DNA of 63,586 bases, filler included, from Catajapyx aquilonaris (Eukaryota), in NCBI GenBank assembly GCA_000934665.2. It is 3 parts of 3 records of this genome, joined end to end, with 100 filler letters (N's around TTAATTAATTAA, not from the genome) between each part and the next. Parts side by side here need not be neighbours in the genome. Positions count along the whole stretch, not along the records: positions 21,249 to 42,362 come from JYFJ02006133.1; 2 more parts are not named here. One strand, 5' to 3'. Below, one piece after another: positions 16,788-55,895 of the stretch. Each line of letters starts with the position of its first letter. The first letter of the stretch is position 1. Both the position numbers and the translations under genes were made by a program. The notes beneath the pieces are model-generated. The model was not told where the DNA came from. It saw nothing but the letters and a program-made list of their open reading frames with translations, and did not search any database.

Positions 16788-17088
16788 ATGGACAAGGAGT
16801 ACGACGCGACCACGTCCCAGATGATGATTTCGGCATGTTCTGGGGCACTTCTCACGTCCTTGCTAAGTATGGTGTTCTTGGGTTGATATTGGCATGGCAC
16901 TAATTGCGCCTGGATTTACAGTGACTCCACTGGACGTTGTTAAGATCCGGTTGCAGGCACAGGAGAAGCAGCTGACACAACGCTGCTTTCTGTACTGCAA
17001 TGGCCTCATGGAACATCTGTGCCCCTGTTTGGCCAGTAGTAATGGTTCGAATTGGTACCAACGGCCGAGTCAGTTTTCTGGAACGATG
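16788..17088 (+). CDS. SLC25A40: Mitochondrial carrier SLC25A39/40 (Shawn-like), first two coding exons (partial gene)
   Basis: Exon 16788-16866 (MDKEYDATTSQMMISACSGALLTSLL), 55-nt intron, exon 16922-17088 (MTPLDVVKIRLQAQ...CFLYCNGLMEHLCPC...FSGTM). Contains the carrier signature and the Cys-rich loop typical of SLC25A39/40. Confidence 0.92.
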
Positions 17089-17252
17089 GCAAGTATATTC
17101 ATGTGGAATCAGTCACTCCAAGCCAGCAAATGTAATAAGGTGAAATGGAGAGAAGCAGATTCATTTTTCGTCATTTTAAAAATGCGCTTAAATGTTCCAT
17201 ACTTTTTAAATTGCATTAAGCAGACACCAAGCAGATTAAACTGCATCCTTAA

Positions 17253-17535
17253 CCCTGGAACCGTGACGTGCCTGAAAGTTACGGCAACAGTGACGTGGGG
17301 TCGTTTAGGAACCTATCCATATTTTAATTGTTATTAATTTTTATATCATACTTGTCAATGTATTGACTATATGCAATCATTCTTTGAACAATGGCTAAAA
17401 TGATCGCTAATTCAAAATAAACCTGCACTTCCTGTTATATACTTTTTTTAAATGGCAAAAGTTCATTGTAATGATCATTTTAATGCATTTTAATTTCTTT
17501 GGGGTCCTAAAAGAGCCCGCGTCACGGTTCCAGGG
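17253..17535. mobile_element. piggyBac-type MITE
   Basis: Perfect 16-bp TIR CCCTGGAACCGTGACG with CCC/GGG ends and TTAA TSD on both sides. Confidence 0.9.
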
Positions 17536-17889: not shown

Positions 17890-20364
17890 CAGCGGTTCTC
17901 AAACTTTGCCACATCGGGCCCCCCTGGAAAGTAATTCCCCCCCCCCNTTTTTTTTTTACATCCCCCACCCATCTATGCACTAGTAAGTATTTGGTAATTT
18001 GGTACGTACAGTACTATGTCCATTCCTAAGCTATACTTACTCCTGTACTTGCCAAATTAGTGCGACTTGTGCGCCTGTTTACTGTCACATAATTTTTGGA
18101 TTCGGGGTGGAATGTTGCTGAGAGCCACTCGGAGGTCCTTTTCGACGTTCAAACGTCTTCTATACTTGGACTTGATGGCGGCCAGTGTTGAGAAACCTCT
18201 CTCGCATAAATATGTCGTTGAAAACGGCAGCAACACCTCTACGGCTTTGGAAGAAAGTTGCGGGTATTCTTGACCTCTCTTGATCCAGAATTTGGCTAGG
18301 CTTGCTGTCGTCGTAAATTCGTGTTTCAATGCACTGTCTGCAGATAAATCTATCAGCTGCTCTTCTTCCTCCGTAGGAAGTCCATTGTCCAATTTGCTTT
18401 CAAAAGGGTTCTGAATCCAGGCGTTTAAGCTCATATCAATCTTGAAGTACTCCTGAAATTTCTCTTCCAGGACGGTGAGGTGACTCACAATCACTTCCCC
18501 TATTTGACACTGATCTATTCCGTTCCTTTTTGCAAAAATATTGACATTGGGAAACATGTCATATACCTCTTGCTGAGCCCTGGATTTCCACATTTGCAAT
18601 TTGCAAATGAAACCAAGTTTTTTCTCCTGAGAATGCAGAATGTTCATGTTATCTCCTTGCAAAGACGTGTTAAGCGCGTTGAATTTCTCGAAGATGTCAG
18701 TCAAATAAGCGAGCAACAAGAGCCAACGATTGTCCAGCAATAAGTGGGATGTGGAATAGTTATTTCCTGACAAGAAAATCCTTATTTCTTCTCTGAGTTC
18801 AAATAGCCTTGTGAGCTCCTTCCCACGAGAAAGCCACCGTGCTTCGCAGAAGTACAGTAGTGTGTCGTATTCTGCTCCCATATCTACACAAATCAATGAA
18901 AACAGTCTGGCTCTCACTGGCGCATTTTTAATGAAATTCACCATTTTCATTACTTCTTGCAAAACTTCATTCAGCTCTGCATTGATCGTTTTCGCTACGA
19001 GAGCCTCCCTGTGTATCATACAGTGTGTCCAAACACAGTGCGGAGCAACATTTTTGACAAGTGCTTGAAGGCCCATTCTTTTACCCGACATTACTGGAGC
19101 CCCATCTGTGCAGATGCCAATGCAATCTTCCCATTGCCAACTATTTTCGTCAAAGAAGGAGTGCACAATATTGAACAGTTCCTGAGCTGTTGCACGGCGT
19201 TCGATGGGTTTGCAAAAGAGAAGTTCCTCACTTAAGTCCTCTCCTGACACATAACGCACGTATGCAATTAAATGGGCATCACTTGCAACATCCGTTGCCT
19301 CATCGAGTTGCAAGGCAAATTTCTTCCCCCTTATGGTCTCAGAGAGTTGTTCAACATCTTGTGCCATGTCACCTATCCTCCGAGAGACAGTGTCATTGTA
19401 ATGAGGGATTGTTTCCAATTGTTTGGCTGCTTCTGCACCAATCATTGTCTTTACTAGTCTACAGCTGCTGGGAGAACCAATGTCTCGGCAATGTTGTGTG
19501 GTTTCTTACTTTTTGCGACATGGAGAGAAAGTTGATACGACGCTAGCAATGCCTTCCTCGAAATCGAAGCAGCTGATGTGAATGATTTTTTTTCAAGCTT
19601 AAAATGACTTAACTTACGTTCAAAAACTCCACAGGCTTATCCTTCAAACCACTATGGTTGGTTTCAAAATGTCTCTTCAACTTGTTAAGTTTCATGCTGT
19701 CTGCAGCCAACACTTTCAAGCAAACTACACATTGGGGTCTTTCTTCGCCTTCGATAATAATTGTGCTCGTGAAACCCAGTCTCAGATAGTTCTTGTCGTA
19801 CTTCCGAGTCTTTGAATAACACTTCTCACGTGAGCTTTCCTCGTCCTGCTTTCCTCTTGCTCCCGCTGGCACTGGCACCAACACTGAGGTACCTATCCAT
19901 CTATAATTCAAAATTCTATATCGTTATTGTTATTCGCTATATTGAGACTACTCAAGTCACTACTGCAGGACTACTGACCGAGCTATTGACAACAGAGAAG
20001 TGTGGCTTTGGACTGACTCCTCTGAAGGGAAAACACGGCCATGTGGCGTCGCCACAATGAAGCACCTCGCTGCCTGGGTATCTGGCAAGATAACGTGAAA
20101 CATGTGCGGCTACCTGGCGGCTCATGTGACTCTCGTCTTACTTATGACAAAACAACATCCGCTTTATGAGCGGTCATGATTCATAGCCGGAAATAATATT
20201 CCATCCTCTCTATCTCCGTTGCTCGTTACTCGCCTTTTTAAAAAAAATACAATTTGTACATGCCACAATCAGTACAGTACAATTCTGCATCGTGAGGGTA
20301 CGTACGCACGCCACCGTGCCCCCCCTGAAACCCCGTAGCACGCCCCACAGTTTGAGAGCCGCTG
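17890..20364 (-). mobile_element. Full-length Buster/Charlie-family hAT transposon in an SLC25A39/40 intron
   Basis: TIR CAGCGGTTCTCAAACT / AGTTTGAGAGCCGCTG; 8-bp TSD GGTTAATC (nnnTAnnn Buster pattern) at 17882-17889 and 20365-20372; encodes a transposase. Confidence 0.95.
18057..19911 (-). pseudogene. Frameshifted hAT transposase (ZBED5/SCAND3/Buster-like)
   Basis: ORF 19609-19911 holds the zinc-finger region (RKYD..YL.LGF...PQCVVC...KLKRHFETNH). ORF 18057-19445 holds LQLDEATD, CTDGAPVM, HCMIHREAL, RWLSRG and TTYLCERGFS. The two are separated by frameshifts/stops. Confidence 0.9.
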
Positions 20365-21248: not shown

Positions 21249-22421
21249 GATTTGCATAGCGAATAACAGGAGAGACAGACATACGTCTAGAAATATGTAT
21301 TAGATGACCATATACAACGTTTTACATCATGAGCTTATTTACAGGGAATATTACAGGCTATTGCAAGTTGCGTATACGATGGTGCACATGGAATGGTATC
21401 CGCATGTGTTGACACTTGCAGTTCCTGCAATAGTGTTAAGAACATTGAGAGCCCTGTAGTACAGTGGTACATTGCGTTTTCTTGGTTCCTTTCTGTTTCT
21501 GCCCATAATTGAGTGAGACTCGGTGAATCTTCTATTTCTAATTCAATTGATTAATCATGTTCAAAGACACAAGTTTATAGGAAACATAATTCAGTTATGC
21601 ACATCTTTCCGGTCTGGAATTGCAGTTGCAAAAGCATAGACTACGGGATTTTGTTAGAAAAGTCCATAGGTGTGGGATGAGATGTCAGACACTTCTCATA
21701 CAACAATCTTGAACCACATTTAGCAATGTCCTGGGAACTCAAAATTACGCAAAATATATTCCCATTCTGTTACTTAATATTTTGTACAATAATTATTGCG
21801 CATTTTACCCCAAATATTACAGTAACTATTCATGGGCTTTCTGTGCCTGAAACAATAAACATATTTTATAGATTGTTAGCATGTAATAATACGAAACATA
21901 CTCTTCGGCTACCTTCCCTTTTGAATTGGGCACTTGGATTGTGCACCACTCTGAGCAATGTTTTCAGAGAACTTTGAGGTTATTACTTTAGACACAGCTA
22001 CGAAAAAAATTTGGTAATTTCCATGTTACTAGATGTATTCATGATATGTCTAGAACCTCCGAATTGACTGCTGCATTGTTGGCAAATCCGTGGATTGATA
22101 TCCAGATATTGCCACATTATTTCTTCTCCAGTGACAAATTTCAAATAGAAAAGTATAGCATTGAAATAATTACCATCACTGGAATTTGTTCTTCAAGATG
22201 CGATAATGAGGAAATAATACCTGAGCATCAATAACAAATGCGTTAACAATACCAACCTTATTGTGGGACCTCATATGACTAATGCATATGCGACTCTGGG
22301 TTACTTCATTAATTAACAGTAATTGCTGTAATTAATTGGCTTTTCTTGAGACTTGCCTCTTTGTATACAGGATGTGATTGTATAGACACAAAGCAAGACG
22401 GTCAAATTTTGGGACATGCAT

Positions 22422-23729
22422 TTAGTTTAGCTGTTTTTCAACATCTTTGAAACCTTCATTGTATGACAGTAATAGTGTCTTGGATGTCGGTGCCAGTGCC
22501 GGTGCCGTTGCCACTGTCGATGGCATCTCAGACTGGCATGATCTTGAAGGGGGCTGCAAATAGTGAAAACAACGAGAGATGTTAAAGAACAATAATACAA
22601 CTACACAAAATGTAATAATGCTTCTTTATTGCTGAAGAAAGCAGATTTAAACAAATCATCGTTCATCTGCGTTACAGAGTCACATTGCAGCCAGTTGTAA
22701 AATATTTAAGTACTTTTGAGAAATGTCACGTAAATAATTTAATTTTTGTGCCTATTGACCTTTCTGTGCACGCCTCTACAGGCTATTTTAGTAAATGACA
22801 CATCAGCAGCAGTACGTAACAGTTTCTTAACTGGATGGATATACTCATGATAATGTCAGTATGAAATGTAATGAGTCATTACATATCAGTTACTTTCCTC
22901 GTGAGTCAAATCTCTATTGACGGGTCCTACTGTGAGTGTCAAGGAAGTAATACGTAATTGAGAGTTGTATTACATATGTAGCAAGAAAAAAAGCATTATT
23001 TTTACTATTAGACTATATATCTAGAATGGTGCAGACAATAAACAATTTTTGCCCAAAAAATATCAGTGTAATGTTGGAGAAGCATGTGATTCAATGACTC
23101 ATTACATATGAGTACCTGCTTGCATCAGCTGCAATGAGCAATGAATATCTTAATTATTTTGTTAAGGGTGACGAAATTAGAACAATTTCTTACCTTTGTA
23201 CACACCCATTGTGTTGGTGGCCGTGATGGTGGCAGTCCAAGAGCTCCATCAGGAGTGAAGGGAGGCATTTTGACATGTTCCTCCAATTTGTCGCAGGCAC
23301 GAAACAAAACGAAGAGAGGGCAGCACACAGTGGAAGTCCTTACAAGAAATGAAGTTTTATAAGGAAATATTTATCCATAATTAGATTAAATGTGATAGGG
23401 TACAAATGACACTTCACTTGAAGTGCAAATTATCTACTGTCTGGCCCTGACTATTTCACGTATGCCTGGCTCAATACCAGGAAGGAATTTTAATCACTCT
23501 GTCAATGAGACTGGCCTTTGTTTGCATCCGCATTGTACCGGCGAACAATAACATGCAAAAAGGAATGTACTTACGAGTACCAGCAGCAAGCACCCAAGCA
23601 CTCATGCCAGGGATTCTCAGGTTCGCAATCCAGGAAGAGATGTTGGCAGACCCACAAAAAGGCTCCACAGATGAGGCAAAATGCCACCACAGCTATCACC
23701 AACATAACATCAGTTTCAGATGTCCCCAT
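22422..23729 (-). CDS. Orphan Cys-rich membrane protein G1, 143 aa, 3 exons
   Basis: Exons 23575-23729 (MGTSETDVMLVIAVVAFCLICGAFLWVCQHLFLDCEPENPWHECLGACCWY), 23194-23338 (TSTVCCPLFVLFRAC...Pro-rich) and 22422-22553. Intron phases 2 and 0 join into one open frame; donors GTAAGT/GTAAGA. Confidence 0.7.
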
Positions 23730-24126
23730 TTGTTACAGTCGATGCTCTGCGGTTAAAATGTTGCAGGTAATTGTGGCAGCACCAAAAGAGCCGTCTTTAG
23801 TGTGTTCTGGTGGTATGAAGCAGTCAAAGAGTAAACCACAAATAATGACTAATGGACCAATCGTCATATGATTTTCGCATGACCTCACTTCTTTTTGTCC
23901 AAAATGACTCCAAAGTGATGCAATAATGCTGACAAATTGTCGTTTGTGTAATATATAAATGTTTATTAGACAATGTTCCCACTATTACCAAGTTCATACA
24001 TTGCACTTACAAAAATTATCACAGTCCGGACACTACTTTGTGAGAAAATTTAAGTCACATCAGCTTTTCAGGTGAGCGATTCTTAAAATGGAAGACCCTC
24101 CTTATAATTATTGCAATTATTGGTAA

Positions 24127-25208
24127 CTAAGCAGTTGGTACTTGTTGCACTTGTTGCGCTTGCTGTTCATTTCTCACTGCCTGTTCATACGACGGTGGAG
24201 GAATGGACCAGACATACAGCCATGACTTGTCATCTGGAGGACTCCATGGTGGGGGAGGAGTTCGTGGTACTCCCTGAAAAATACATTTACCATTAATCTT
24301 GATTGTAATGTTATCTCAACGATTGAGAAAATTTGCATCGAAACAATTATTGCCCACAATTTGAATATCACGCAATACGCAAACATTTCCCAATGTGCAA
24401 ACCCTTAGCAATAATGTTACATAAGAGGCTCAAACATTTTAACCAGTGAGTACGTGAAGTACATTACCTGCTCTACTGATACTTGAAGAAGATCTGATCT
24501 GATCTGGTTTGAACGTGCGCTGCTGCTCCTTTGACGGCGGCATTGGATGCATCTTCGGCAGAGGATTAAAAGCAGGAGTCCAACGACCATTGCAGCTGAA
24601 AATGAAAGTTGCTTTCATTAGTATCTGGTGAGATTTTGACTATTGCTTACACGAAAATCGTCCACGAAAGGAACGGGTTTCAAACTCCATTTATAGTACA
24701 TACATGCAGTACATATGCTATTAGTACTATCAGCGTCATAGCTATCATTTTTTGGTAAAAATAACATGTGGTGTATACTCTTTTTCTAATCAATGATAAT
24801 GGCTTTGTGTACCTTATCCCAAAAGTGTTTGTTGAACCTATGAGATTTTATGACGCACATCTGATATGGAAAGCAGGCCATAGCCAGAACTATGAAAACA
24901 TCGAGAGTAACGAGTATTTGGCGATATCAGCATTGAAACGAACCCAATTATTCAAAATACTGTACCTGCTTAGTGATGCAGTTAATATAAATATTGGGCC
25001 ATTACTTTCACATTACTAAAAAGCCAACTTCATTACCTCCTACAAAGGTGTATATTCTTGTCTTATTCCAGATGAATGATGGTCCAGTACAGCAGATGTC
25101 ATTATTGGGTGGACAGCAAAGAAACTGGCCATTTGGCCAGCAGCCTCTGGACGCTCCAGTACATGATGCCGATGTAAGTAACACCGTTTGATTGGTATCT
25201 GCTTCCAT
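24127..25208 (-). CDS. Cys-rich ectodomain / single TM / PPxY protein G2 (WBP1/VOPP1/CYYR1-like architecture), ~148 aa
   Basis: Exons 25037-25208 (N-glycosylation sequon NQT, C..C..CC..CC), 24468-24595 (AMVVGLLLLILCRRC) and 24127-24273 (PPPWSPP, IPPPSYEQA). Phases 1 and 0. Start codon not certain. Confidence 0.8.
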
Positions 25209-25946
25209 TTCTTGCTCTTCGGTTGAATGCCCAGTGGACTGCCGCTTCCGTGTAGCACACAGTTGTACTGTATAAATTGCGGATGTGTAATCACTACAGG
25301 TACAGTTACCCAGGTTGCGCCAAGCAATGATAAGAGATTACTCGGGCATCCCTTATTGGTGAAAGGTTTAAGGACATCAATTACATGTGCGGCCCTGAAG
25401 ACAATGTAACTCACATGTTGGGGGGAGTTACCAGATGGTTGCACCATTAGTTGCAATATATTACGAATAGTTATGTAATTCCATTGTTCTGAATATTCTC
25501 ACTCTTCATGTAATCATCGTGAAGTTCTTGATATCCTGGGACACTCCAGATTTACTTTGATTACACTGCACATCAGGAACAAAAGGTACACTAAAATGAG
25601 TTGGCAGGTAATGCGTACAGCATATTTTGGGGACGGCTGATTGGTTCATAATGAGTGGGAGTTACAGCTCTGAAGAACTTTTCAAACATGAGATATGCAG
25701 GGTAATGTTTTTCAACACCACATAAAACTGTACAGGACTATGGGAAACAGTGCATCTGAAGAAATTTTAAAAATTTGCATTACTTTTAATTTGTCATTTA
25801 TTCCTCACTCATGTTGTATACACTCTAATATTGGTATGCAGCTTTTTCATTGCAATTTTGATAATAGTTTTTACAAGTAGTAAGAATCCTGAAGCTACTT
25901 GTAATTATATTGTCACTGTTGCACTTTCAAGTGGTCTTAGTCTGAA

Positions 25947-27290
25947 TCACAAAATATAATTAAACTGATGTACTCGTGTAAATTGCTGTCTCCCACTGTG
26001 CTGTGTATGAGTTCCGGGTGTTACAGACCCCCTCCCGGATGCTTCTTGCCTATTGGTCCGTCCAGGCCCTTGTGACTGGTAAATAACCCCCCGCAACTGT
26101 TGGGTAGTTGCAGTTCTTTGTTGCAATGGTGGTGCGGGATTTGCCTGGTGATATCCGTAATTTAGTGCCCTTGTTCGTGACTGTGACTGGTGTCCTCTGT
26201 AGCTACGACGTTGTGTAGATGGTACTTGGTCAGGTGTGCGTTGCGATGATGATTGATTGGCTCCGTTACTTGACAATTGTTGCCGTGACCTGAAGTAGTA
26301 ACTCTGCGACTTCTGGGTGGGTCGTGCCATTTGCGGCGCTGTCGGAGGTGTGACATAACTTGGATGGTGTGTCGATGTCGATGACTGACAGCTTCCGTAG
26401 TTAGGCGGCATTGTGTGTGCCTGTTGTTGCTGGTACCTCGTGTTCATGAAGTACGGCGGAGGCCTTGCTGACCATGACTCTTCGTAGGCAGGTGGAGCTT
26501 CAGATGCTCGTGTTTCTTGCCTCCGACGATTGGGTTCATCTGGTTCGCTTGATCGGTGACTTTGACCATTTGATTGTGATTGTTGGGGATATATTATTAT
26601 GGTGGGGGCTCTGTTGTGATGCAATATCGACGTTGTTGGAAAGGTCTGCTGGTAAAATTAATGTATTTTGCGTGATTGCACATACAAACTTGATCCTACC
26701 GAGATTAGATTTTAACTGATAATTTCGCCATAAGCCTATTATTTGGAACAGTGACTCTTTAGTCTATAGCAGTTAGAAAATGTAGCTGCTCACGTTAAGC
26801 CAAGTTGAATAGTCAATTAAAAATTCTGAATTACAATGAATAAATTGGGAATGACCCGACACTGGATATCAATAGTGTAACCAAAGTTGTGCAGGGATGA
26901 AAAATGATGGGCCAACCTAAAATTAGCAGGCATAATTTTTGAAAAAAAAGGGTAGCATATGGTTAAAAGTACCTTTACTTAAGGAGCACGCTGTCATTAT
27001 ATGAGTACTTACTTGACGTGAAGTGTGCCTTCTTGCGATGTCCTGTGTATTTCCAACATACCTGGACACGATTCGGACGAGGGCATCACATGGACAAAAC
27101 AAGATGCAGAACCTGAGCAGAAGAGAGGCTATTCATTCCAGTATTTTACGACACCGTATAACTTTATATCTCACACGTCGCAAAAAATTGCTGGTCGGCC
27201 ATAGATGCAATTCCGACGACAAATTTGCACTGCCCAAGAAAGCCAAAAAAGTACGAGAGCACCCGTAACTAGCCAAAGAAATACCTCCAT
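25947..27290 (-). CDS. Orphan membrane protein G3 with long Gln/Ser-rich tail and three PPxY motifs, ~305 aa
   Basis: Exons 27175-27290 (MEVFLWLVTGALVLFWLSWAVQICRRNC...), 27013-27112 (FCILFCPCDALVR...) and 25947-26648 (CAGCAG tandem acceptor; PPAY, PPPY, PPNY). Phases 2 and 0. Confidence 0.8.
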
Positions 27291-27858
27291 CGCAAGGCAT
27301 GGTTAAAACACTATTCTGTTACATTTCTGCTAACGACACAATGTGGCGGATATTTTCGCTGCAGATTGTACTTGTGTCCTTGTATCCGTCACGTGCAATT
27401 CCCCTTTGCAAAACTCTGAGGAAGATTATTCTGACAATATAGTGCAGCGCCTATCAGTCACCTTTGACTTATCCTGCGACTGGCTCAGCAGTAGACGAGG
27501 GAAATTCCCAGACAAAATATAACTGCTAGATTATTGTGTTTTAATATACGTAATGAGGCTAAGGAGCTTCTATGTAATTATGAGTTGAGAATAATCCATT
27601 GTTGAGATGTTGCTTATCAAACAGCTTCGTTGATGCTCAATATTTTTGTTGGCACTCCTGCATGCGCGAATTTCAAACTTATGTGATGCTGATACTGGGG
27701 GTGATGACCGTACATTCTGGATCAATTATTTTTCTCCTTTAATTTCTCTCAAGTCCTTTTGTACCATTATCACCGACCGACCATTAAAGAATGGCAATTA
27801 TTAGTTATTACATATGTGATGATCTTTTGCAAGCAGTAATGTAAGATATGTAACTCAC

Positions 27859-27969
27859 CTTGAGCCAAAAGGTTTTCCAATATTACCTTCTTTCAATTGT
27901 CACATTATCCAGGGTACCTGAAGCCTTCTATCACCGCATAACAGGAGCATGAGGCACATGATGCAAATG
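27859..27969 (-). pseudogene. Relic exon-2 copy (A) of the microprotein family
   Basis: TTGCAG acceptor and GTGAGT donor; homologous to 28742-28854 and 30461-30568 (reads ICIMCLMLLL...). Frameshifted relative to the shared stop, and no matching first exon found. Confidence 0.55.
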
Positions 27970-28784
27970 CTGCAAAACTTCTCCTTCTGCACTTCAAATT
28001 CAACAGTCAGAAACTTCAAAATTCAAGGTTTAATAATGCATAATGAGGCAACAACATGTGTAAGGTTACATGGGGGAAAGACTCACATTCGTTACTATTC
28101 ACTTCTTAAGAAAGTCTAATTTTGACGGAAAGAAAATGTTGATTTATAATTTATAATTTTGCTTATGTAACACCATATTGTGTCTGCTGCAGCATGTAAA
28201 TTTTCAAAATACGGATAGCCTGTGATTCGTCTAATTTGGCTCGAATATAAATTGTTGAACCATTCTTATATGGAGCCTTGTTGCTATAGTGGGATGCGTT
28301 TTCAACATATCAAGTTGCAAATATTTTCATGTTTCAATTTTGTCATGCATCTTGTGGTGCAGGCAGGTGAGAGTTGCAGAATGTGATGAGATATTTTCTT
28401 CAGCGGGATTGTTGTCCTCCGGAAATTTCGACTGTAAGGGAATAAAATTATATTAGCATTTTAACAATATTTTTTATCGCCGCGTAAAATGTTGGCATTG
28501 AAAATTGAACAATTATTATAATAATTGTTCAATTATGGAACTATTGTATATCTCGTTATGGCAAAAATTTTCATTTCTTCTTCATTTCTCTTCATTCTCT
28601 CCCTTCATTTCTCTCATATCCCTTTGTACAGTATGCTATTTTCTCTGACCTACCGGTACTCTCAAAAAACGGAAATAATTGTATCATAAATATGCGATGC
28701 TGTTTTGTAGGCAGTAATGCATTACAGTATGTGTAACTCACCTGAGCCATAAGGTTTTTCTAGATGACTCCTTCAATTGTCATA

Positions 28785-29349
28785 TTAACCAGTAAGGTAC
28801 TGGAGGCATCGTGCAACCGTAATTAACAGGAGTATAACGCAGATGGCGATAATGCTGCAAATAAAATAACAATTTAGTTGCATGGTACTCAAAACTTGTC
28901 CTTCTTAAAAGGATGACACCTGACCCTCCTTGAGTGCAAAGTCCAGCTGGCCTGGATATTAATAAATTGTGGAAGGATGATGACAATGACAAAGGAAATG
29001 GCGGAAAATGCAATGACCTCACTCCGATAACGTGTTTCGAGTTACATACACGTGCACTGGCATTCAATTGCATGGGGTTTGTCTCAGAATATTACACGAA
29101 CGTATTTGAAGGAGCGGCGTAAAAAAAATGTCAACAGAGTGTAACAATACGTCTATGGGACATCCTATCCTTCATCTATTAGCCACCTCTAACTATAGTG
29201 CAGTGTACTTACTTCCCTATGCTGGTGGGGTCCGGCACGATCATACGCCATATCTGGTGGCCACAACAGGAGACGAATATGAGTAAGATCGCGTAAGAAA
29301 AGACATCGGCCAGTGAAGAAATCTCCGAAGGTGGATCGTACGGGGCCAT
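28785..29349 (-). CDS. Membrane microprotein B with two hydrophobic segments, 68 aa
   Basis: GCCATGG start; exons 29213-29349 and 28785-28854 (phase 2): MAPYDPPSEISSLADVFSYAILLIFVSCCGHQIWRMIVPDPTSIGNIIAICVILLLITVARCLQYLTG*. Confidence 0.65.
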
Positions 29350-30504
29350 GGCGAAGGACTTCGAAGTGGTTCACACTGTCCTCTGCAGCAATGGCCAACT
29401 TCAGCTGCGAATGAGCCTCACTGGCTTCCCAGACAGTGACGCTTTCTTGAAGATGTTAATGGCTCATGGTCCAATCAGAAGCAAGGAAGAGGAATGGAGG
29501 CGGCAGGGATACCACACGATGCGAACCAATGCTTGGAAATAGGCTTAAAATATTTGCACTTTACACTGTAATAAATTATAATTATTTGGACACTAGAAGC
29601 AACTAGCATTAGACCTTCTGTGTGATCGTAGGTGTTTATTTCTGAGATCTGGTATTTGATCTGGCGATTTTGTAAGTGACTGAGGTTGGCAGGTGGCAGA
29701 TATATTGGTTATGAGTTATTCTTATTGTGCCTGGAAGTTGAGGGGACGGGGAGGCAGAAAAGATGGAGAAACTACAGTATTTAAGCCGTTACATCAAGTT
29801 TTAATATGATTTTTAAACTTTTGTATTTATGCTATTTTCGAAGACAGTTAACATACAGCAAAAGTGATGCCAATCCCAACTTGTTAAAAAATCACAATGT
29901 AGAACCTGTACATTACAGACACTGTGGGCGCTATCGGCGATTCAAAATTTTAAATACGTTAATCGGATAATTATGTCCAAATCGAATCCATTATTTCCTA
30001 CAACTAAGGAACAACACATTGCATGTGATCATGCGCCTAAAGCTTCATGTGAAGTTTCAGGCACATACTCTGCATTTTAATTTTTAAAATATGAGGCAGA
30101 TACGAATTTACTCCCCCTAATATTTTGCTCATGCTGCTGAACTCTTTTGAAATTGAGCTAAGTAAAATATAATGGTGGGATGTATTTTCAAAATATCAAA
30201 TCAAGGTTTGTAGGAGGATTTGTCGACTTCAATTTTGTCCTTCTTTTGCTGCACGCTGGAGAGTTTTATAGATCATGTCGAGATGAAGCAGGCCATCATG
30301 AGATCTCCTACTTCAGGTGATCATTGTCGTCAGGAAATTCTCCGCTGTAAGAAAATATAAATGTTACATTTTTTCTGGATCTTGTACCGAAGTTTGAGTG
30401 ATGGCAATAAATGTTTTATTAATAATACTATTTTGAAAGCCTGTATGGTACACAACTCACCTGATCCGGAAAGGTTATCCTTGACGAATCTTTCAATCGT
30501 AATG

Positions 30505-31196
30505 TTATCCCAATAAGAGTTCTACCCCAGCCAACAACAGCAGCAATGGGACGCAGATGACGCCAGCTCTGCAAAAAAAATAAACGATGTAGATGCATAG
30601 GGTTAAAATCTAAACATTTTAAATAAGCTGCATGCTCCAAAATCTTAAACAACACACATCAAGTTTTGAGTGTTCTCTCAGTAGGTATTGATTGTCTTCA
30701 CTTTCTATTTTTAATCATATACGATATATTGTAAGTATGAAGAGAAAGCTTATTATCCTATGCATTAAAAATAGCGACATTTTATTCCCATTTTGCCAAG
30801 AAGACACCTGACCCTTCTTGAGTGCAAAGTCCATCTGGCCTGAATTCTGTGGTATACTAGTATGATGACGATGACAATAAGGAAAAGGGTGGGGAACGCA
30901 ATGGCCTCTTTCTGATGTGTATGAGAGGTTCATGTTACATCCTAGTCCAGACAATCCAATTGCCCGATTAAATTGCATGAAGTTTCTTTTAGATGAAGAA
31001 TGGCAATAAAATGTCACCTTAACACATGTCTTACTTACAGTATTATGGTGCAGGGGTTCCTGCCTTCATCGATGCATCGGCACAGTAGGGAGCAAACAAT
31101 GTAGCAGACAAAGTAGAGAAAAAGAGCATTAGCAAAGAACCAGCAACTTCGACATAAACTAGGTTCCACAGGCAGAGGCAGATTGTCCAGACACAT
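30505..31196 (-). CDS. Membrane microprotein C, 73 aa (tandem paralog of B)
   Basis: Exons 31039-31196 and 30505-30568 (phase 2): MCLDNLPLPVEPSLCRSCWFFANALFLYFVCYIVCSLLCRCIDEGRNPCTIILAGVICVPLLLLLAGVELLLG*. Flanking DNA is homologous to the B unit at ~1.8-kb period. Confidence 0.65.
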
Positions 31197-32390
31197 GGCT
31201 GGGCATTAAAGTGTAGGAACACTGGTCTGTAGGGCAATGGTCAACTCCAGCTTCCTCAGACAGCTATGCTGTCGTGCAGGAGCCGTTAATGACTCATGGT
31301 CCAATCAGAAGCAAGGAAAGAGGAATTCAGGCTGCAGTGCTACCACAGGATGCGAACCAAAAGCTTGGAAATAGGCTCAGGCTGATAGGTTTAATCGAAT
31401 GGGTTTAATACCTTCATTATTGAAAATCTAAAATTTACAACAATCCCTGATTGTAGAAGTTAGTATAGTTTGTGAGTTCTGATATTTTGATCGGGTGATT
31501 TTGTGAGTGACTGATTAACCAGCAGATGAGGTTGGCAGGTGGCAGAAAGGTTCATTGTGCCTGGAAGAGGGGTTGAGGGAAATGGGAATAGGGCGACATT
31601 ATACAAAGCACATTATTTGGAATTATGTCGCCATTTTAGTAATTTTGAAGCAGGTTATCAAGTACTACGTCAGTAATACAGAAAAGGTGATTGCATTTCA
31701 ATTTTTGTATTGTTTTATACAAAGATTCCGTCAGAAGTTAGAAATCTGTAAAATGGCATGATGGAAACCAATACGATGTGATATGGATGGCAATAATATT
31801 CCGATAGAAATATTTGTCAATTTATTATGTCAATTGTTACGTAATGGTGCTACACACCTATTTACAGTTACATAACTACCACCATAAAAAATACTGAATT
31901 GGTGAAACTGAGATACTCGTTTAAGGCATTTTGTGAAGTTCAGGATCCACATTTAATCCTGCACTTCTATTTAGAAATTCATTTCGCACAAGAATGCCTA
32001 TGCAGTAGTCGCCTTTTTTAAAATCACGGAACAGTACTGCTTGACTTCAGAACATTTCTCAACAAAGGGGCTCGGTGAAACGTCAGACACCTCAATTGTC
32101 ACATACCATTTTAAAATATATAAATAATTATCAGCACTGATTGTGCTGGGCGATTCAATAATGGCTCAAATGCCACTTATATTATTGCTTAAACCAATGG
32201 CCGTGACAAGCCTTCGATCATCAATGCCACTTTTGGATTCATTGTTGAAAATTATTTCTGCCAGTACTTTCGTCAATACAGGTCTGATCCTTTCAGTCTT
32301 TCACTATAAGATAGCGCATATGTACAGTACACACCCTGCTTATGCAGTTTTACAACACAACACGTAATACTGAAGAGTCACTTGTAATGT

Positions 32391-34164
32391 TTAAATATGA
32401 AGCGTAGCACAATTTCCCAATTCCTGTGGAATTGTTACATAACACGTGCTGACATCTTCGGGCTGAGGCGGCTGCTTTGTCTTTGAAGCACTTCTTATCG
32501 CCTCTGTGTATGTGGGAGGCGGGATGTGATAGTCCATCGGAGGCGACATGGGAGGGCTCCATGGTGGTGGGGCGTCCTCTTGTGACGCAACTTGTGATGA
32601 GACGTCATTCCGAGGCAGACTCTGGAAGTAAAGAGTCGTTACAGTCTCTCTATCTGCTATTGAGGATTTCCGGTCACACGTGATAAAATGCGGCATTATC
32701 AAGAAAAATAATGTTAGGCCAATATTGATGCGTTCGTGTTGACGTAACCCCGTGCTTTTCTTTTGATAAATAATAATGACAAGTGGCAGTTGCAGGTCAG
32801 TTTGAAGGAGTCGTATTTGTACACTGGCTGTTATGTAAAGGAAAAAAACACCGCATAAGGATAATCCTCACCTCTTTTCAATGTTCAGAAAAAGTCCTGA
32901 ACATTACGAGCGATTTGTAAATAAACTGACGACCAGTCGAAACAATATGGTCAAATGAGTAAAATAAGGACTAAAATGTGGATGAAATTGTTGAAATTGA
33001 AATTGTTGTCATTTAAAACAAACTATCAGATTTTCGAAGCAGAGAAATAATAAAATGTCTTATTATTACACCCTGTAGCAATGTTGGTATTTGCTGATGC
33101 TATTTTTCTGCGCATTTTAAGGAATAAGCAATTCAACAGTGAAGGTTGGTTTTTGTCTCTCGGTGTCAATGTGCTTTCACAATAGAGAATGTTTGCCATT
33201 TATTGTGTAGTATTTGTAATCAGAAATGCTTCATAAATACAATAACCTGCCCGATATGACCGCTATGTAGTGTACTCCTACTGATGGAGGTCAGTGATGT
33301 GTACAGAGCGAGTACAAGTAAACATTGATCAGTTAGCAAATTTGATATTAAACCTGAAAATCAATCCAGGATAATGAAATAGTAAAATATTGATTATCAA
33401 CATGTTGGCTAATGAGGGTGTCAATTATAAAGTGTGATTTTTACATCGACTTTTAAAATTATCCGTAAGATTTGACCATCTCGGAAAGTACCTTCAAACA
33501 TACTGTACAACGCCTAACTTAACCAAAATATGACTCTCATTATTGGTCAACATTTCAGGTCTATATTTGCACGTCCCTATATGTAACATTAAATGTAATT
33601 ATGTATTTACCCGAGTGGTAGCTGGTATTTGGCGAACGTTCCCTTTCCGCTTCCGATGTGACAGCAGACATTTGCACAGTATCAGGAGGAGTATCAAGGA
33701 TACGATGAGCACCACGACTGCAAGAAGAAAAAAAAAGCACAAATCACATTAGATTATATCAGACTTTCTGCAAAACAATCCCATGGAAAATTTACATTTC
33801 AAACAGGAGTTCTCATTTTTACGTAATACTGTTGATTTAGGACCGGTTGCACCAAAGCTAGATTCAGGTTCAGGTACTACTGTTGTTAATTGTTGACAAC
33901 AATTACTCGCACCTAAACCTGAAACTTTCTTTGATGCAAAACTCTTCATATGTCAAGATATTACGATTTCAAAGTATTTTCCTTACTTCCGACAACAAAT
34001 TCTGTCTTTTGTGACAAAACGGGTGAGACGTCGTCGCAGCATGTATCGTCATCACGTAAGCAGCACACAGTGTTCCCATGGCAGCACCGATGGACATAAT
34101 CTCTGCAGTAAGTGACACCACATGTGCCTTCTAAAGAGACTGAAGAGTTGTCGTTACGAACCAT
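32391..34164 (-). CDS. Cys-rich ectodomain / single TM / PPxY protein G4 (paralog of G2), ~171 aa
   Basis: Exons 33987-34164 (MVRNDNSS...C..C..CC..CC..CC), 33611-33717 (VVLIVSLILLLILCKC) and 32391-32621 (PPPWSPP, IPPPTYTEA). Same intron phases (1, 0) as G2. Confidence 0.8.
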
Positions 34165-36279
34165 CCTCAACACTAAAGGTGTCTTCTTGCAAGTGCACTC
34201 GTACGTAGAGCTGTCTAGCTTTATGTACTGTACACTCAGGTTATCTTATCTTTATCTGTTTACTGTGACCTCAATCGGAACTGTGGACTTCCAGGCCGAA
34301 TGTGGGTGGGTAAAGTGTGATGGTCGAAGGACACTGTGTGATGCAAAATGTGATATAAGATTTGTGGTCCAAGAACGTCATCAGGATTAGTTACTGTTGA
34401 TCCCTTATGGGAGATCAGATATTACATTGAAGTCAATAATGGACATAGCTGATCCATCTGATTTTAGGGCATTAGCTGGATTAACTAATATGGGTCTCGC
34501 TTGAAATAGACAATTACGGTTGGAGAAACACAGTAACTAGACATTAGACAGCCTCTAGCTCAAAGTAGCTGGATTACTTAACAGTGTGACCTTTTCACTC
34601 AACTATTCTCGAATGTCTTCTACGTCCTTGTGCAAAGCTTACTTACAATATAATGACATGATGAAGTGTGATTATCAAGAAAAATGTGAACTTGACATAT
34701 TAGAAAGCAGTATATACGTAACATTACTTTTCTATGAGCAGATATGATAGGGCCTGAGATCATAAAAGCATTAATGTATTACTCACAGCCTGCTGGTACA
34801 ATTGCACCTTGAGTGTGAACTGCTTATTACAAAGGTTTGCAGCCCAAGTTTAAGTACGTCAATAACTAGGTTTTATATGCAAGGAACTGGAACACATTTT
34901 ACTATTTGCACACTGCACTCTCTTTTTGTGCAGACAATTCCTCATGATAGTTATCGCCGTCAAAATGTGAATCATGTACTGACGATTTCTTGAGGTTTGC
35001 AAATAATGCCACACATACACCCCAAGTGATTAGAACTGTTTCCCCCCCCCCCCCCCCCCCCTNGTGCTTATAGCATAGTCAGCATACTTTTCCCACGCGA
35101 TAATAACTTGCTGTAGGCGAGTGAACTTTATTGCCACTTTGCCAAGTCGGCAAAATGTTGGACGATTTCTCCCGACAACCAACACACAACTTTTGATCCG
35201 GGTGCCATGAGTTGCCAGGAGGTAAAAGCTACACACTGCGCATGACCTGATTGGCGCAATTCATACATTGCATAGAGTGCATCACTTCATAAATACATTT
35301 ACATTTTTGTTGTTATCATATTATGTGGTTATGCAATACTGTGCACATATAGTATAATTTCGTCATAAATTTGCGAAAAAATTGTGCTGAAATTACTTAA
35401 CCAATAATTGCTCAAAATTTTGCAAATTATTGGTGGCTCATTCTGTAAAATTTAATGAAGAGCCAGCAAGTATGGGATTTACATTTGCCCAAAACAGATG
35501 GCGTGAGCAATGCAAAAAAGCCCGTCTCTCCAAATCATTCCACATCAATAATTGACTGTGTCCAACTTTTTGCAAAATCCTGCGACAAATCTTGCTGCCT
35601 GTGCTACACAGTACGAGTTTAGCTCTCCCCAGTCCTCTCAAAGCCGACCGGTGCAAAGAGTCCCTACGACTTACAACTCACTTGTCAACCGGAGGCCATC
35701 AGTACACTAGAGGTAGCTGCATCTGGCCACCCTGAATTATAATTATCAATAATTTTAACCACCTTGTTTTCAGTATAGCCCCCCCCCCCCCCTAATAACA
35801 GAAAGTCGACTGCGGCTTAATTAACACTTTTGACACTTTTGTGCAATTTGTATTTTGCACGGCTGTTTTGCAAAAAAAAAAATGTTTGGCAGATATCCAG
35901 TGCAATCTGCACGCGGTTTCTTGCCAGTGGATTGCGCAGTCATTCTCCCGGCAGGCGATGCTTCACTTTCTGAAAGGGTGTGGGAATAAGGCAGGAGGTA
36001 ACTTGCTGTAATGCTTGGTAGGAATTATTATTGAAAGTAATACGTAAATTTGGGATGTAAAAAATAGCTCGGATAATTGCTGGTTATAGCTGCTTATTAT
36101 TAACAATAAGTAGTGAACCATTTAGTTACAACTTAGGTCGGTCCTATATATTTTTTTATTACAAAATATTTTACGCTATGCGAATTGCAATGTTAATTCC
36201 ATAATATTGATGGCTGATCATGATTATGTTCATCTGCACGGGTCCAATTTGTCGCACTTTCCAGGTGTAGGAGTGGAAC

Positions 36280-36810
36280 TTAATAGGGTGACATATTATA
36301 TTTTGGGGTCACCCACTTTGGCTTGGCAAGTTCTCCGATCCTGTCACTAGGAACAGCCTGAAAATAATAATAACAACAATAGTAGTATTAGTAATAATAA
36401 TACAGGGTGATACAAAAATTGTGTGGATCAGCAGGCTACAAATAGTAATACCAACGTTTGTACGGAATACAAGCATAGTAATTATTTGTAGTGTGCAAAT
36501 ATTTGCAATAAATTTGAAGTACGTACACGCAGAGTTCGTTTCGAAATCTTTCGAGGAAACTCGTGGTCGTGCATCACCCCGGGATGCTCCTTCTTCGGCT
36601 GAGACAGTCTCTCTAGTCTGGAACTGCATCTGAATCGAATAATGTCTCCACCTAGAGCAAAATATTAAACGGTATTACGTATATTGCCTATATTCTGAGG
36701 TTAATATTAATTTAGGCTATAGGTACCACAGTTATTTACTCACTCGGTTTCCGAGGCGGTGTAGCTACTTGCCAACTCCTGCTAAATGTGTTCCACATCC
36801 AGTTGATCAT
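36280..36810 (-). CDS. THEG (testicular haploid expressed gene) repeat-containing protein, short (~89 aa) or truncated
   Basis: Exons 36744-36810, 36527-36651 and 36280-36357 splice in frame to ...CSSRLERLSQPKKEHP...PRKISKRTLRAVPSDRIGELAKPK..., i.e. two S.R(L/I)..L(A/S).PK motifs. Confidence 0.6.
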
Positions 36811-38414
36811 TTTTGGATAAATTTAGCTGCTCCTTCCGGTATAATAGCAGGAATTCTAAATATTGTGTTCGCACCCTCAGGAATGAAGTAAAGTATGATT
36901 GCCGTTTCCCTAACAACAGGGAAACCATGGAGAATATTAGCAGCAGTTGACAACAATATATGATAACAAAAATATGTTATTTTTATTTTTATTTTATTTT
37001 GCGCGTGTCTGAAAGGTTCCCATCTCTGTGTATACAGCGGTCACCTAAAGAGAGGCTAGAAAACTTGCGAGAAAAAATATATTGAATTTCACATGAATTC
37101 GATGTGCCATACATTATCTCCATACTGTAAGGATGTTTCCACGGTTACAGAAACACTTGTACAGATAAAAATCAAGGTAGCACGAATGATATCAAATCAT
37201 TGTGAAATGCGGAAGTAACACGTGCCAGTGATAAACTTTATCGCAAATTAATTTGGGTTTCAAATTATATCAGTATTTCGTAAATCGTAAAGGTAATGTG
37301 ACGAATGCATGTGATAGTTATTTTTGGATCTATTGTCATTGCCGCAATATCTAATACACCTGAGGACTCATTTCCTCGTATTCTGGGTTTACCTGTAAGT
37401 CAGGGTCGTTTTCTTCTCTCTGAAGGATCTCTTGGAGGACGTCTGATGTGACTGGCACTTCTTTTTCTGCCATAGACACTTCAGAATTTGGCACTTCAAT
37501 CTTCATGGTCCTTACTTTCTTCAGGGTTAGTTGGCTCCTGATGTCTAAGGTTCTGATACTGTTACTCCCACACACACTTCCTTTATTATGTATAACGTAC
37601 TTGCTTTATCAGGACATGACACTTACATCAAGGTGATTATTTAGATAGATGCTGCTGATTACTCGCGGTTGACCCCTGCTAGTGTTATGTATTACGCAAG
37701 TCTGAGGTCCTGGTTTGTGTGTGACGGACTTTAAGTATTGGTCTTTTCCATTAAAAACAACGGCAAGTTCACCCTGTAACATTGATAATGATATGATGGT
37801 TTCATATTTAAGCTGCTGGTTGGCTATAGTTTATTGTGACGCTCAATATGATAGGCTACTCTTCATGAGGTCTTTGTTGCCGTAATCTTGTCCCATTGGA
37901 ATGATTTCAGAACATGGAAGTTTGAAGATTCTAGATGTACTGTCCCTTATGAAAAAAATAATTTCCAACCTTTCTCTTTGGAACTGTAACTGCTGGTATA
38001 TCAGAAAACTGACTCGACTGTCTAATACTGTATAGTACGGTATGCTTCGAGAACTCTAGTGTATAGTGCACAATATATTTCCAACTCAATTTCACCCGAA
38101 TGTGTTTCTGATATTTCTGCCAGTCAGGTCTTCATCTATAAAAGTCGATGATAATCTTCAACATATTTACGTCCTAAGGCTGTAGTTCTTTGCAAACATG
38201 TTTATATTGATAGTCCTGCTCTTTATTCCTGTTCGCTTCTATAGATGGGGGTAATAAGGGTGAAGGGAACCGGATATGGCTTATTTACTATACAATAGGC
38301 CCTATCCATACATTCTATTGTGGCACTCCCCTCCACTGTATTGTTGTACAGCATAACTTATATTCGAATATGCTGTATAAACACATTTGCGGAATGCCAG
38401 TAGAATATTACCTA

Positions 38415-39367
38415 CACCGAAAAAAAAATTTTGTTGACAGAACCAAAATATGGTTCATGGAACCAAATTTGGAGGGTTAATATACAACCTATCAAGATTT
38501 CGGTTGAAGTAACCAAAAAAAATAGGTTGTCGCATTTTGGTTGAGTTAACCAAAATATTGGTTGTTCTGACGTGTTTCTCCTAACCTAGATTTTGGTTGA
38601 GGTAACCAAAATATTGGTTGTTCTGACGTGTTTCTCCTAACCAAGTTTTCGGTTGTGGTAACGAACACATTGGTTATGATAATTATCATCATCGCCTATA
38701 ACTGACACACATCTGGCGGAAAGTAATCACCTGAACATGAGAGGCTGCCCGTAATACAATCGCAAAGCGCGGCCGTAGACAGTGGGTACTTATGATACAG
38801 TCGCTGAAGAGTCATTCACCAATGTACAGTCGAATTACTTGTACTCTGTACCTACACTGGAGGGGGTTAGCCCCAGCATATCATGTCAGTTAGCTTCTCT
38901 CAATTACAGAGACCCCATCCTTCACACTTGCGTTTAAACACTAGTAGTCAGAGAATCTCTGTAACGTCCCAAAGAAGCCCATCCACTCCTACCTGGAACA
39001 GGTGAGCACTCAACCACCCGATGGACATTATGTCTCTGTCAGGTTGCCCCAAGGGCTTGGTTATGATATCATCATCGCCTATAACTGACAAGCATCTGGT
39101 GGAAAGTAATCACCCGTTCACCTGGCCTGAACATGAGAGGCTGCCCCCAATGCAATTGCAACCAATTTTTTTTTGTTACGCCAACCGCGTGATTTTGGTT
39201 CTGCCAAGTGCAGTTTTGGTTGAATCGACCCTTTAGCACTCTACCAAATTTTTTTGGTTACTTCAACTTATTCCTTTTTTTCGGTGCAAGTGCAGTTTTG
39301 GTTGAATCGACCCTTTAGCATTCTACCAAATTTTTTTGGTTCTGTCAACAAATTTTTTTTTTGGGTG
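38415..39367. mobile_element. Non-autonomous CMC/EnSpm-like element (CAC ends, TA flanks)
   Basis: TIR CACCGAAAAAAAAATTTTGTTGACAGAACCAAAA / TTTTGGTTCTGTCAACAAATTTTTTTTTTGGGTG, many TTGGTT...AACCAA subterminal repeats and internal direct duplications. Confidence 0.75.
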
Positions 39368-39716
39368 TAGTTGTCAGGATTTGGGATTTTTTAAATGACA
39401 ACATATAGACCTATTAAGGTGTTTTGTTTTATTTACAATGCAAGTTCAATATAAGTAGTGTAATAACATCTGTTGACAACCGGTGACTTTCGGCATGTGA
39501 AGGGCTACACACTGCTGCACGAATATTTTGAGTACTTCTATGAGAGACGGTGTTCGATGTCATCAAAATTACGACGTTTCCGTACGTTGTCAGAGATTGA
39601 CATCAAAGCGAATGCGGAATACATTGACAATATGCTTATTAGTAGGCCTAGTCTAATAAAGAACGTGCTGGTATCATAGGAATTTTTAAGGCGAATACTG
39701 TTCGTGTGTAGCGTGA

Positions 39717-55586: not shown

Positions 55587-55895
55587 CACTGTACTCCCGA
55601 TGATTCGGGTGCGGATTATCCGGGCATCGCCGAAACAAAGAAAAATAAATAAACGTCCTAAAAATGCAAATATGTCTTAAAAACAAAAAAAATATCTGAC
55701 TTTTCCTAGAAGACAAACTAAAAATGTGTGGGCTGTTTCATTACTTTAATTAAATCTTATTAAAAAGAGCTTACAGTACGTACAGTAGTTCATTTAAAAC
55801 CTCTGAACAGCTCATTTTTACGGTATTTAGGACCATCTTCTGATTATCCAGCGACACTCGTGCAGTTGTTAGCCTGGATAATCCGGAGTACAGTG
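55587..55895. mobile_element. Tc1/mariner-pogo-type MITE at the 3' end of SLC41
   Basis: TA flanks at 55585-55586 and 55896-55897; TIR CACTGTACTCC / GGAGTACAGTG with GGATTATCC/GGATAATCC subterminal motifs. Confidence 0.8.

Follow-up and report, generated by a model that had tools for sequence, protein, structure and literature searches.

We analysed a stretch of 63,586 nucleotides (nt) from Catajapyx aquilonaris (GenBank assembly GCA_000934665.2), composed of three joined parts and hereafter called the window (63.6 kb), in which a cluster of short spliced genes occupies positions 22422 to 34164 of the minus strand. The cluster lies in the part that spans positions 21,249 to 42,362 and comes from JYFJ02006133.1. 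The window is animal DNA with about 40% G+C and short introns. The six small genes of the cluster follow one another in tandem on the minus strand, and spliced RNA was seen for five of them. The original prediction had placed six spliced genes and a relic exon on one strand here, and this arrangement is present, the sixth gene as a prediction only. We named the five transcripts T1 to T5 by rising coordinate and the predicted sixth gene G6. On the minus strand the order is T5, T4, T3, relic, T2, T1 and G6.

The sole transcript evidence for the cluster comes from the spliced contigs of one public sequencing run (X1), whose kind is unrecorded and which contains 0.25 of the sampled words of the region. 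The contigs mapped to 21249-39500 jump ten segments. Because they skip introns with GT..AG ends and cover exon parts only, we infer that X1 is a transcript assembly. The contigs define five three-exon transcripts from 23941 to about 34164, all on the minus strand. All ten joints are GT..AG on that strand (CT..AC on the plus strand), with two exon boundaries moved by +1 or +2 according to the alignment notes, which restored GT..AG. The gene models that had been proposed were largely right. X1 cover is absent at 21858-23684 (G6), at the relic and at two blocks in the first introns of T3 and T4, and is not informative on their expression.

The genes have a common layout, with an N-terminal exon, a membrane-helix exon of about 100-130 nt and a tail exon. 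Most coding exons encode only 20-59 amino acids (aa), so that a track of open reading frames (ORFs) would miss these genes, as had been noted. A six-frame reading of 22422-34164 gave, on the minus strand, hydrophobic helices followed by cysteines, two Cys-rich pieces and three Pro-rich pieces with PPxY. A hydrophobic segment is followed by close-by cysteines in all six predicted proteins, and three of the six genes carry PPxY (one motif in T1, one in T5 and three in T2); both features agree with the original prediction. Among the six-frame ORF pieces of at least 25 aa from the whole window, five of eight PPxY motifs are on the minus strand of the cluster, as are five of six pieces with a helix, cysteines and basic residues. 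This minus-strand segment makes up about 9% of the sequence searched, and the clustering of both kinds of piece is not chance. The sequences support two families, interleaved as had been proposed: T1 and T5 form family 1, whereas G6, T2, T3 and T4, plus the relic exon, form family 2. The coordinates are collected in Table 1, in which product lengths are predicted across the joints.

Table 1. Genes, exons and other elements of the cluster. Positions count along the window; CDS, coding sequence; X1, the sequencing run described in the text
Feature	Position	Strand	Description
T5 gene	31902..34164	-	family 1; 171 aa
T5 transcript	at least 34033-33987, 33717-33611, 32621-~31902	-	X1 joints 33717>33987 and 32621>33611
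T5 exon 1 CDS	34164-33987	-	Cys-rich ectodomain
T5 exon 2	33717-33611	-	membrane helix, Cys-x-Cys and basic run
T5 exon 3	32621-~31902	-	tail with PPPWSPP and PPTYTEAI; stop codon 32393-32391
T4 gene	30175..31306	-	family 2; predicted 73 aa, two hydrophobic segments
T4 transcript	~31105-31039, 30568-30461, 30344-30175	-	X1 joints 30568>31039, 30344>30461
T4 promoter motif	31306-31287	-	
T4 exon 1 CDS	31196-31039	-	
T4 exon 2	30568-30461	-	stop codon 30507-30505, 44 nt before exon end
T4 exon 3	30344-30175	-	untranslated
Intron-1 block	30800..30916 in T4, 28912-29028 in T3	-	open helix-plus-basic frame in both copies
T3 gene	28071..29476	-	family 2; predicted 68 aa, two hydrophobic segments
T3 transcript	~29324-29213, 28854-28742, 28431-28071	-	X1 joints 28854>29213, 28431>28742
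T3 promoter motif	29476-29457	-	
T3 exon 1 CDS	29349-29213	-	
T3 exon 2	28854-28742	-	stop codon 28787-28785, 43 nt before exon end
T3 exon 3	28431-28071	-	untranslated
Relic	27730..27976	-	orphan copy of family-2 exon 2 and start of downstream intron
T2 gene	25940..27302	-	family 2; 304 aa
T2 transcript	~27302-27175, 27112-27013, 26645-25940	-	X1 joints 27110>27173 (cut +2), 26645>27013
T2 exon 1 CDS	27290-27175	-	hydrophobic N-terminus and Cys/Arg stretch
T2 exon 2	27112-27013	-	second hydrophobic, Cys-rich segment
T2 exon 3	26645-25940	-	232-aa Gln/Ser/Pro-rich tail with PPAY, PPPY, PPNY; stop codon 25949-25947
T1 transcript	25262-25037, 24595-24468, 24273-23941	-	family 1; 148 aa; X1 contig
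T1 exon 1	25262-25037	-	Cys-rich ectodomain; CDS from 25208
T1 exon 2	24595-24468	-	helix and CRRCIQC
T1 exon 3	24273-23941	-	PPPWSPP and PPSYEQAV; stop codon 24129-24127
G6 gene	22422..23862	-	family 2; predicted only
G6 promoter motif	23862-23843	-	
G6 exon 1 CDS	23729-23575	-	155 nt, phase 2 end, GTAAGT donor
G6 helix-2 exon	from 22623 (second AG)	-	stop 22424-22422; gives 118 aa

By their sequences T1 and T5 are clear paralogues. Their local alignment scored 155, compared to 30 ± 4.6 for shuffled sequences (z = 27, with 0 of 500 shuffles as high). The tail exons matched each other by tblastn within the window (E = 5e-8), and the intron phases, 1 and 0, are identical. T1 is covered by a single 687-nt contig that runs across its three exons with 0 mismatches and starts 54 nt upstream of the ATG, without any additional joint; a polyA signal (AATAAA) is located at 23967, 26 nt before the contig end. 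The T5 contig reaches only 47 nt into exon 1, and the ATG at 34164 thus rests on the ORF and on the paralogy with T1. Intron 1 of T5 also contains an imperfect 99-nt self-complementary stretch (71%) at 33847-33939.

The ectodomains of both proteins are about 55 residues long and show a C*C*CC*CC pattern. In T1 the six cysteines are residues 16, 23, 31-32 and 39-40. In T5, cysteines 20, 27, 34-35 and 42-43 align with these, and Cys 15 and Cys 28 bring the number to eight. N-x-S/T sequons, at which the proteins may be glycosylated, are present at Asn 6 and Asn 48 of T1 and at Asn 6 of T5. An AlphaFold2 model of the T1 ectodomain exon from a 2-row alignment (mean predicted local distance difference test score of 55.7, predicted template modelling score of 0.28) was too poor for a fold search. 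Each protein has one 19-aa helical segment (hydropathy 2.6-3.5) that ends in Cys-x-x-Cys-x-x-Cys in T1 and in Cys-x-Cys in T5. Lys or Arg account for 6 of the 15 residues after the helix versus 1-2 of the 15 before it. Under the positive-inside rule the basic flank of a helix marks the cytosolic side, and the N-terminus is therefore predicted to be luminal or extracellular and the tail cytosolic. Neither protein has a signal peptide: the N-terminus is polar, and over the first 40 residues no 10-aa stretch exceeds a hydropathy of 1.27 in T1 or 1.02 in T5, whereas the maximum is 2.3-3.4 in the other four genes. No signal-peptide-like ORF or exon was seen upstream of T1 and T5 in the short intergenic DNA. 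Without a cleavable signal, the predicted orientation is type III. The earlier statement that no gene of the cluster has an obvious cleavable signal peptide thus stands for T1 and T5 (best hydropathy 1.0-1.3) and needs a qualification for T2 and G6, in which the N-terminal segment could be one.

The short, disordered tails of T1 and T5 (47-76 aa) carry one PPxY each and align almost solely at two blocks, PPPWSPP and I-P-P-P-[S/T]-Y-x-[E/Q]-A-[V/I]-R. Seven residues are identical between the two proteins in the first block, three of them through different codons; seven are also identical in the second (IPPP.Y..A.R), six of them through different codons. As 9 of the 14 identical residues are on different codons, the motifs have been held at the protein level while the DNA drifted, and the PY motif is under constraint at that level.

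Proteins of family 2 have an N-terminal hydrophobic segment, a short Cys linker and a second hydrophobic segment encoded on exon 2, and do not show the C*C*CC*CC pattern. Their exon-1 coding sequences (158, 137, 155 and 116 nt) leave phase 2 in four of four genes. Basic residues follow the second hydrophobic segment, and the part beyond is thus predicted to be cytosolic in every reading. T2 is bound to the family only by phase, layout and a weak similarity (G6-T2 z = 3.1, 4 of 1000 shuffles). It begins with Met-Glu, 17 hydrophobic residues and then Ser-Trp-Ala, a segment that looks like a classical signal peptide, and its first intron is 62 nt long and in phase 2. An upstream ATG at 27299 (minus strand) stands 9 nt before the T2 start codon and in another frame; in the spliced transcript it opens a frame of about 50 codons, which overlaps that of T2. 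Given this upstream ORF, translation of T2 may need leaky scanning or a transcription start between the two ATGs.

G6 is predicted to be a gene from its paralogy and from a promoter motif that it has in common with T3 and T4. The whole-protein local score of G6 against T3 has z = 6.9 (0 of 1000 shuffles as high). The helix-2 frame lies about 950 nt past exon 1 and matched T3 exon 2 by tblastn (E = 0.002). Within helix 2, 10 of 21 residues are identical to those of T3, 9 of the 10 by different codons, with a proportion of nonsynonymous differences (pN) of 0.29 and saturated synonymous differences (pS). Such identity in the face of synonymous change is good evidence for translation of this frame, now or in the past. 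The window contains three copies of the promoter motif, GATTGGNCCATNAGYCATTA (20 nt), one each before G6, T3 and T4 at a distance of about 90-135 nt from the ATG. Three matches to this pattern were found in 0 of 100 shuffles, a test that is not independent because the pattern was derived from those same sites. The cysteines between the two helices of G6 are residues 28, 35, 44 and 48-49, and CCWY immediately precedes helix 2. The first hydrophobic segment could serve as a signal peptide, and the tail of about 45 aa has no PPxY. An alternative three-exon model uses a middle exon at 23338-23194, skips the helix and gives 143 aa.

T3 and T4 are duplicates at the DNA level, judging from 83% identity over 128 nt just upstream of the first ATG, a 46-nt block farther upstream and homologous starts of exons 2 and 3. 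Both have 15-20 polar residues before the first hydrophobic segment. Since their reading frames stop at a homologous place in exon 2, just past the second helix, exon 3 is untranslated. Neither shows significant similarity to the members that bear PPxY. Together with the missing coding constraint of T4 against T3, this leaves the decoy role offered in the original prediction for tailless genes without support. The block in intron 1 is 75% identical between T4 and T3 over 120 nt, which is above the identity of their coding exons, and the two frames matched each other by tblastn with E = 2e-10. Its pN of 0.27 versus a pS of 0.35 gives no clear coding signal, the X1 contigs skip it, and the frame fits the phase of T3 exon 1 and not that of T4. 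A repeat element was considered and rejected, with no other DNA copy found within the window; a 10-aa match at the protein level at 49066-49095 has no DNA similarity there. The block may represent an alternative or former exon, or have a regulatory role. The relic is 70% identical over 270 nt to 28861-28595, which comprises T3 exon 2 and the start of the following intron. It lacks an exon 1 as well as an upstream promoter motif; none of the three sites of that motif in the window is here.

Two further observations concern the same region. A 218-nt X1 contig at 29785-30001, in the gap between T4 and T3, differs from the window by one base change, a 3-nt deletion and a 3-nt insertion, and may represent another allele or a paralogous copy located elsewhere. 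Intron 2 of T3 contains a perfect 32-nt palindrome at 28503-28534.

We lean slightly towards reading T1 and T5, together with T2, as membrane-anchored PPxY adaptors of the known WBP1L / STMC6 kind, in a fast-diverging tandem array of arthropod type with family 2, a two-helix family that has no name, alongside. The most likely function of the three proteins would be the recruitment of NEDD4-family ligases via PPxY. T1 and T5 would work like WBP1L, WBP1, VOPP1 and CYYR1, docked in the membrane as single-pass proteins, with the N-terminus outside or in the lumen and the tail in the cytosol, and would probably be palmitoylated at their juxtamembrane cysteines. Their PPxY would bind the WW domains of NEDD4-family HECT ligases, for which the conservation of the PY block despite synonymous change provides indirect support. 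The bound ligase could then be activated or relocated, and the ubiquitination and sorting of nearby membrane proteins would be steered in this way. T2, with three PPxY motifs in a predicted cytosolic tail, would probably act like T1 and T5. The original prediction had offered the cluster as a candidate undescribed system. This part of it was not supported: T1 and T5 show the published build of STMC6 / WBP1L-type adaptors (PMC6991692, PMC5578492, PMC6125347), and the genes of the cluster look like fast-evolving, lineage-restricted relatives of that known class. The rapid diversification and lineage specificity put forward in the original prediction would fit the blank homology searches.

Several results weigh against the adaptor reading. 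Homology searches used single exons (35-232 aa) as queries, which limits their reach; with these queries, no protein collection gave a match to the cluster genes. Exon-wise Pfam scans (12 ORF pieces at E ≤ 1 and 11 exact exons at E ≤ 10) yielded nothing above the curated cut-off. A profile built from the two ectodomains of T1 and T5 retrieved 0 proteins at E ≤ 0.001 from 1.84 billion representatives, and word-based protein searches with exon 1 of T5 and of T1 (both among longer proteins) and with the T2 tail (among proteins of near length) gave no match. The C*C*CC*CC pattern carries little information by itself. Human WBP1L itself is not known to have a signal peptide. CYYR1 and Drosophila CG15760 are described with an N-terminal signal sequence (PMC5578492, PMC11399591), whereas T1 and T5 have none.

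The only related Pfam model to appear, WBP-1 (PF11669), matched the T5 helix exon alone at E = 0.04-0.08, with 14-15 bits versus a cut-off of 28.1; hydrophobic bias is likely on that exon. The Shisa, CYYR1, TMEM92 and Comm models were not among the exon-wise Pfam matches. ESM Atlas searches with T1 exon 1 and the T5 tail gave no usable match. In metagenome contigs there were 103 pattern matches for the ectodomain alignment and 600 for the tail alignment, none of which was confirmed. Six chains among the PDB sequences matched the ectodomain profile at E values of 0.21-2.8, none of them significant, and Rfam gave 0 matches in the whole window.

Other points against the adaptor reading concern family 2, and several of them also speak for the best-placed alternative. 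It is quite possible, although not what we expect, that T3, T4 and perhaps G6, although transcribed, are duplicates in decay or without coding function, whose two-helix ORFs are leftovers and not microproteins or decoys. The predicted coding sequences of T3 and T4 have an identity of 0.52-0.53, compared to 0.45-0.46 for shuffled DNA, and are less well kept than the promoter (0.69), the intron block (0.70) and the stretch of exon 2 after the stop (0.70). In exon 2 the pN between T3 and T4 (0.52) is about equal to the pS (0.45). With coding sequences near the shuffled level and pN about equal to pS, T4 may lack a constrained product; drift may be under way in T4 at least, or both genes may be diverging fast. 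The protein-level case for family 2 is weak (z = -0.5 for T2-T3, -0.2 for T3-T4, 2.0 for T2-T4 and -0.5 for G6-T4), and the T3 and T4 proteins are not significantly alike. G6 has no transcript evidence, and its helix-2 frame requires the second of two AGs 8 nt apart, an unusual acceptor, the first AG leading to an early stop.

Against decay, the ORFs of T3 and T4 both run from the first ATG after the common promoter to a homologous stop, and they differ in length by multiples of three, namely 21 nt for exon 1 and 6 nt for exon 2. Stops close before the last junction usually escape nonsense-mediated decay, and those of T3 and T4, at 43-44 nt, are inside the usual limit. Helix 2 of T3 is constrained against G6, and both T3 and T4 were seen as spliced contigs. 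By our arithmetic, the probability that the first ATG opens an ORF of at least 68 codons in DNA with 40% G+C is about 0.01.

For T1 and T5 themselves, we think it unlikely that they are arthropod sorting receptors of the Commissureless (Comm) type, in which an extended PY motif would divert a specific receptor from the Golgi to endosomes, in part independently of ligases. The fly genes comm, comm2 and comm3 lie close together in the genome. Such receptors would fit the lack of a signal peptide in T1 and T5 and their extended motifs, PPSYEQAV in T1 and PPTYTEAI in T5, to be compared with GLPSYDEAL in Comm and GLPSYEQAV in PRRG4. According to one study, the extended motif of Comm and PRRG4 is critical for function, and its Tyr is followed by an acidic and a hydrophobic residue; a signal sequence is missing from Comm, PRRG1 and PRRG3; and outside the motifs the sequences are very poorly conserved, even within insects (PMC5578492). 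The same study doubts a homology of Comm with Shisa-like proteins because Comm has no extracellular cysteines (PMC5578492), whereas T1 has six and T5 eight. T1 and T5 thus combine two traits of Comm, the missing signal sequence and the extended PY motif, with an extracellular part that is not Cys-free, and no Comm family was found in the exon-wise Pfam scans. In function, the Comm-like alternative overlaps with WBP1L-type adaptors.

A reading of family 2 as unnamed two-helix, Cys-bearing microproteins paired with the WBP1L-like adaptors, in which the tailless members tune ligase recruitment or compete with it, seems quite unlikely to us. The tailless members would then assemble through their helices with the PPxY-bearing members, and the locus would be a built-in module of adaptor and anti-adaptor that duplicates and diverges quickly. 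It is very improbable that T1 and T5 are auxiliary subunits that tune a channel of the ionotropic glutamate-receptor type, for example the one encoded 5.5 kb upstream: a Cys-rich mini-ectodomain with one helix resembles the Shisa class, of which the vertebrate Shisa6/7/9 (CKAMP) act with AMPA receptors, and a Lig_chan-domain ORF is on the same strand, but adjacency is the sole link to that gene, the tails keep a PY motif and not a class I PDZ ligand, and the exon-wise scans gave no similarity to the Pfam Shisa model.

The upstream ORF (668 aa in a single exon, 39717-41723, minus strand, E = 1.1e-9) resembles a variant ionotropic receptor. At 18057-19505 (minus strand) of the window, a 482-aa frame has a hAT-family dimerisation domain (E = 4.8e-6) and is a hAT transposase or a domesticated copy. 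MgtE domains on two long exons at 55771-58505 (minus strand; E = 2.4e-23 and 8.6e-12) are typical of an SLC41-type gene. Pfam also identified a tetraspanin exon at 13817-14293 (minus strand) and a mitochondrial-carrier exon at 16867-17337 (plus strand). Several X1 contigs have unrelated loose ends at 21273-21307, beside two runs of N, which suggests a dispersed repeat. Tandem repeats comprise a 23-nt array of about 29 copies at 61863-62537 and AT-rich repeats at 49702-50224.

The choice of receptors and transporters that NEDD4-type ligases tag for removal from the cell surface lies with small PPxY membrane adaptors. In arthropods these are almost unstudied apart from Commissureless; a full-text search for the fly gene CG15760 turned up 4 papers, of which only one deals with it as a gene. 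The locus described here is a compact, expressed set of paralogues with and without an ectodomain, a PY tail or any tail. If orthologues are found, it would offer a natural series for learning which parts such adaptors need. It also illustrates that ORF-based annotation misses genes made of 20-60-aa exons. Pei and Grishin reportedly described expansions of Shisa-like genes, specific to their lineages, in amphioxus and acorn worm.

Among known systems, a parallel to T2 may be NDFIP1/2, which are small multi-helix proteins with cytosolic PPxY motifs that activate NEDD4-family ligases; T2, with two hydrophobic segments and three PPxY motifs, may work alike. The PY motifs of NDFIP1/2 are N-terminal to three helices, whereas those of T2 are C-terminal to two hydrophobic segments. 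T1 and T5 resemble Commissureless and PRRG4 as short membrane proteins with an extended PY motif, exemplified by PPSYEQAV in T1, and differ from the PRRG proteins in having a Cys-rich mini-domain in place of the Gla domain. With CYYR1 and CG15760 they have in common a Cys-rich N-terminal part, a single Cys-containing helix and PPxY, although CYYR1 has three PPxY motifs and T1 and T5 one each. CYYR1 uses PPxY to bind WWP1, WWP2 and ITCH, and it directs WWP1 to lysosomes (PMC11399591); CG15760, with C*C*CC*CC and PY motifs, is regarded as a candidate Shisa-like protein of the fly (PMC5578492).

The STMC6 or Shisa-like class is defined by the combination of the Cys pattern with PY motifs and comprises Shisa, WBP1, WBP1L, VOPP1, TMEM92 and CYYR1 (PMC6125347, PMC5578492). 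One description of the class adds an aromatic motif (WY, WF or IW) by the helix on its outer side (PMC6125347); in T1, FIW stands nine residues ahead of the helix, which starts with IYTF, and T5 has only EF. The study of WBP1L describes a very short luminal part with a disulfide-held C*C*CC*CC motif and an NXS sequon, followed by one helix; palmitoylation is proven, and three [L/P]PXY motifs bind and activate WWP1, WWP2, ITCH and NEDD4L and raise CXCR4 ubiquitination. A signal peptide has 0 occurrences in that paper (PMC6991692). T1 and T5 differ from WBP1L, WBP1 and VOPP1 in that no sequence similarity was detected at the exon level, in their much shorter tails (47-76 aa) with a single PPxY, in the eight rather than six ectodomain cysteines of T5, and in their place in a tandem array mixed with a second family of small proteins. 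They share with these proteins the Cys pattern, the sequon, the one helix, the cysteines at the helix end and the Pro-rich tail with [L/P]PxY. As predicted from their sequences, T1 and T5 match the WBP1L-type build feature by feature, with an extended PY motif like that of Comm and PRRG4.

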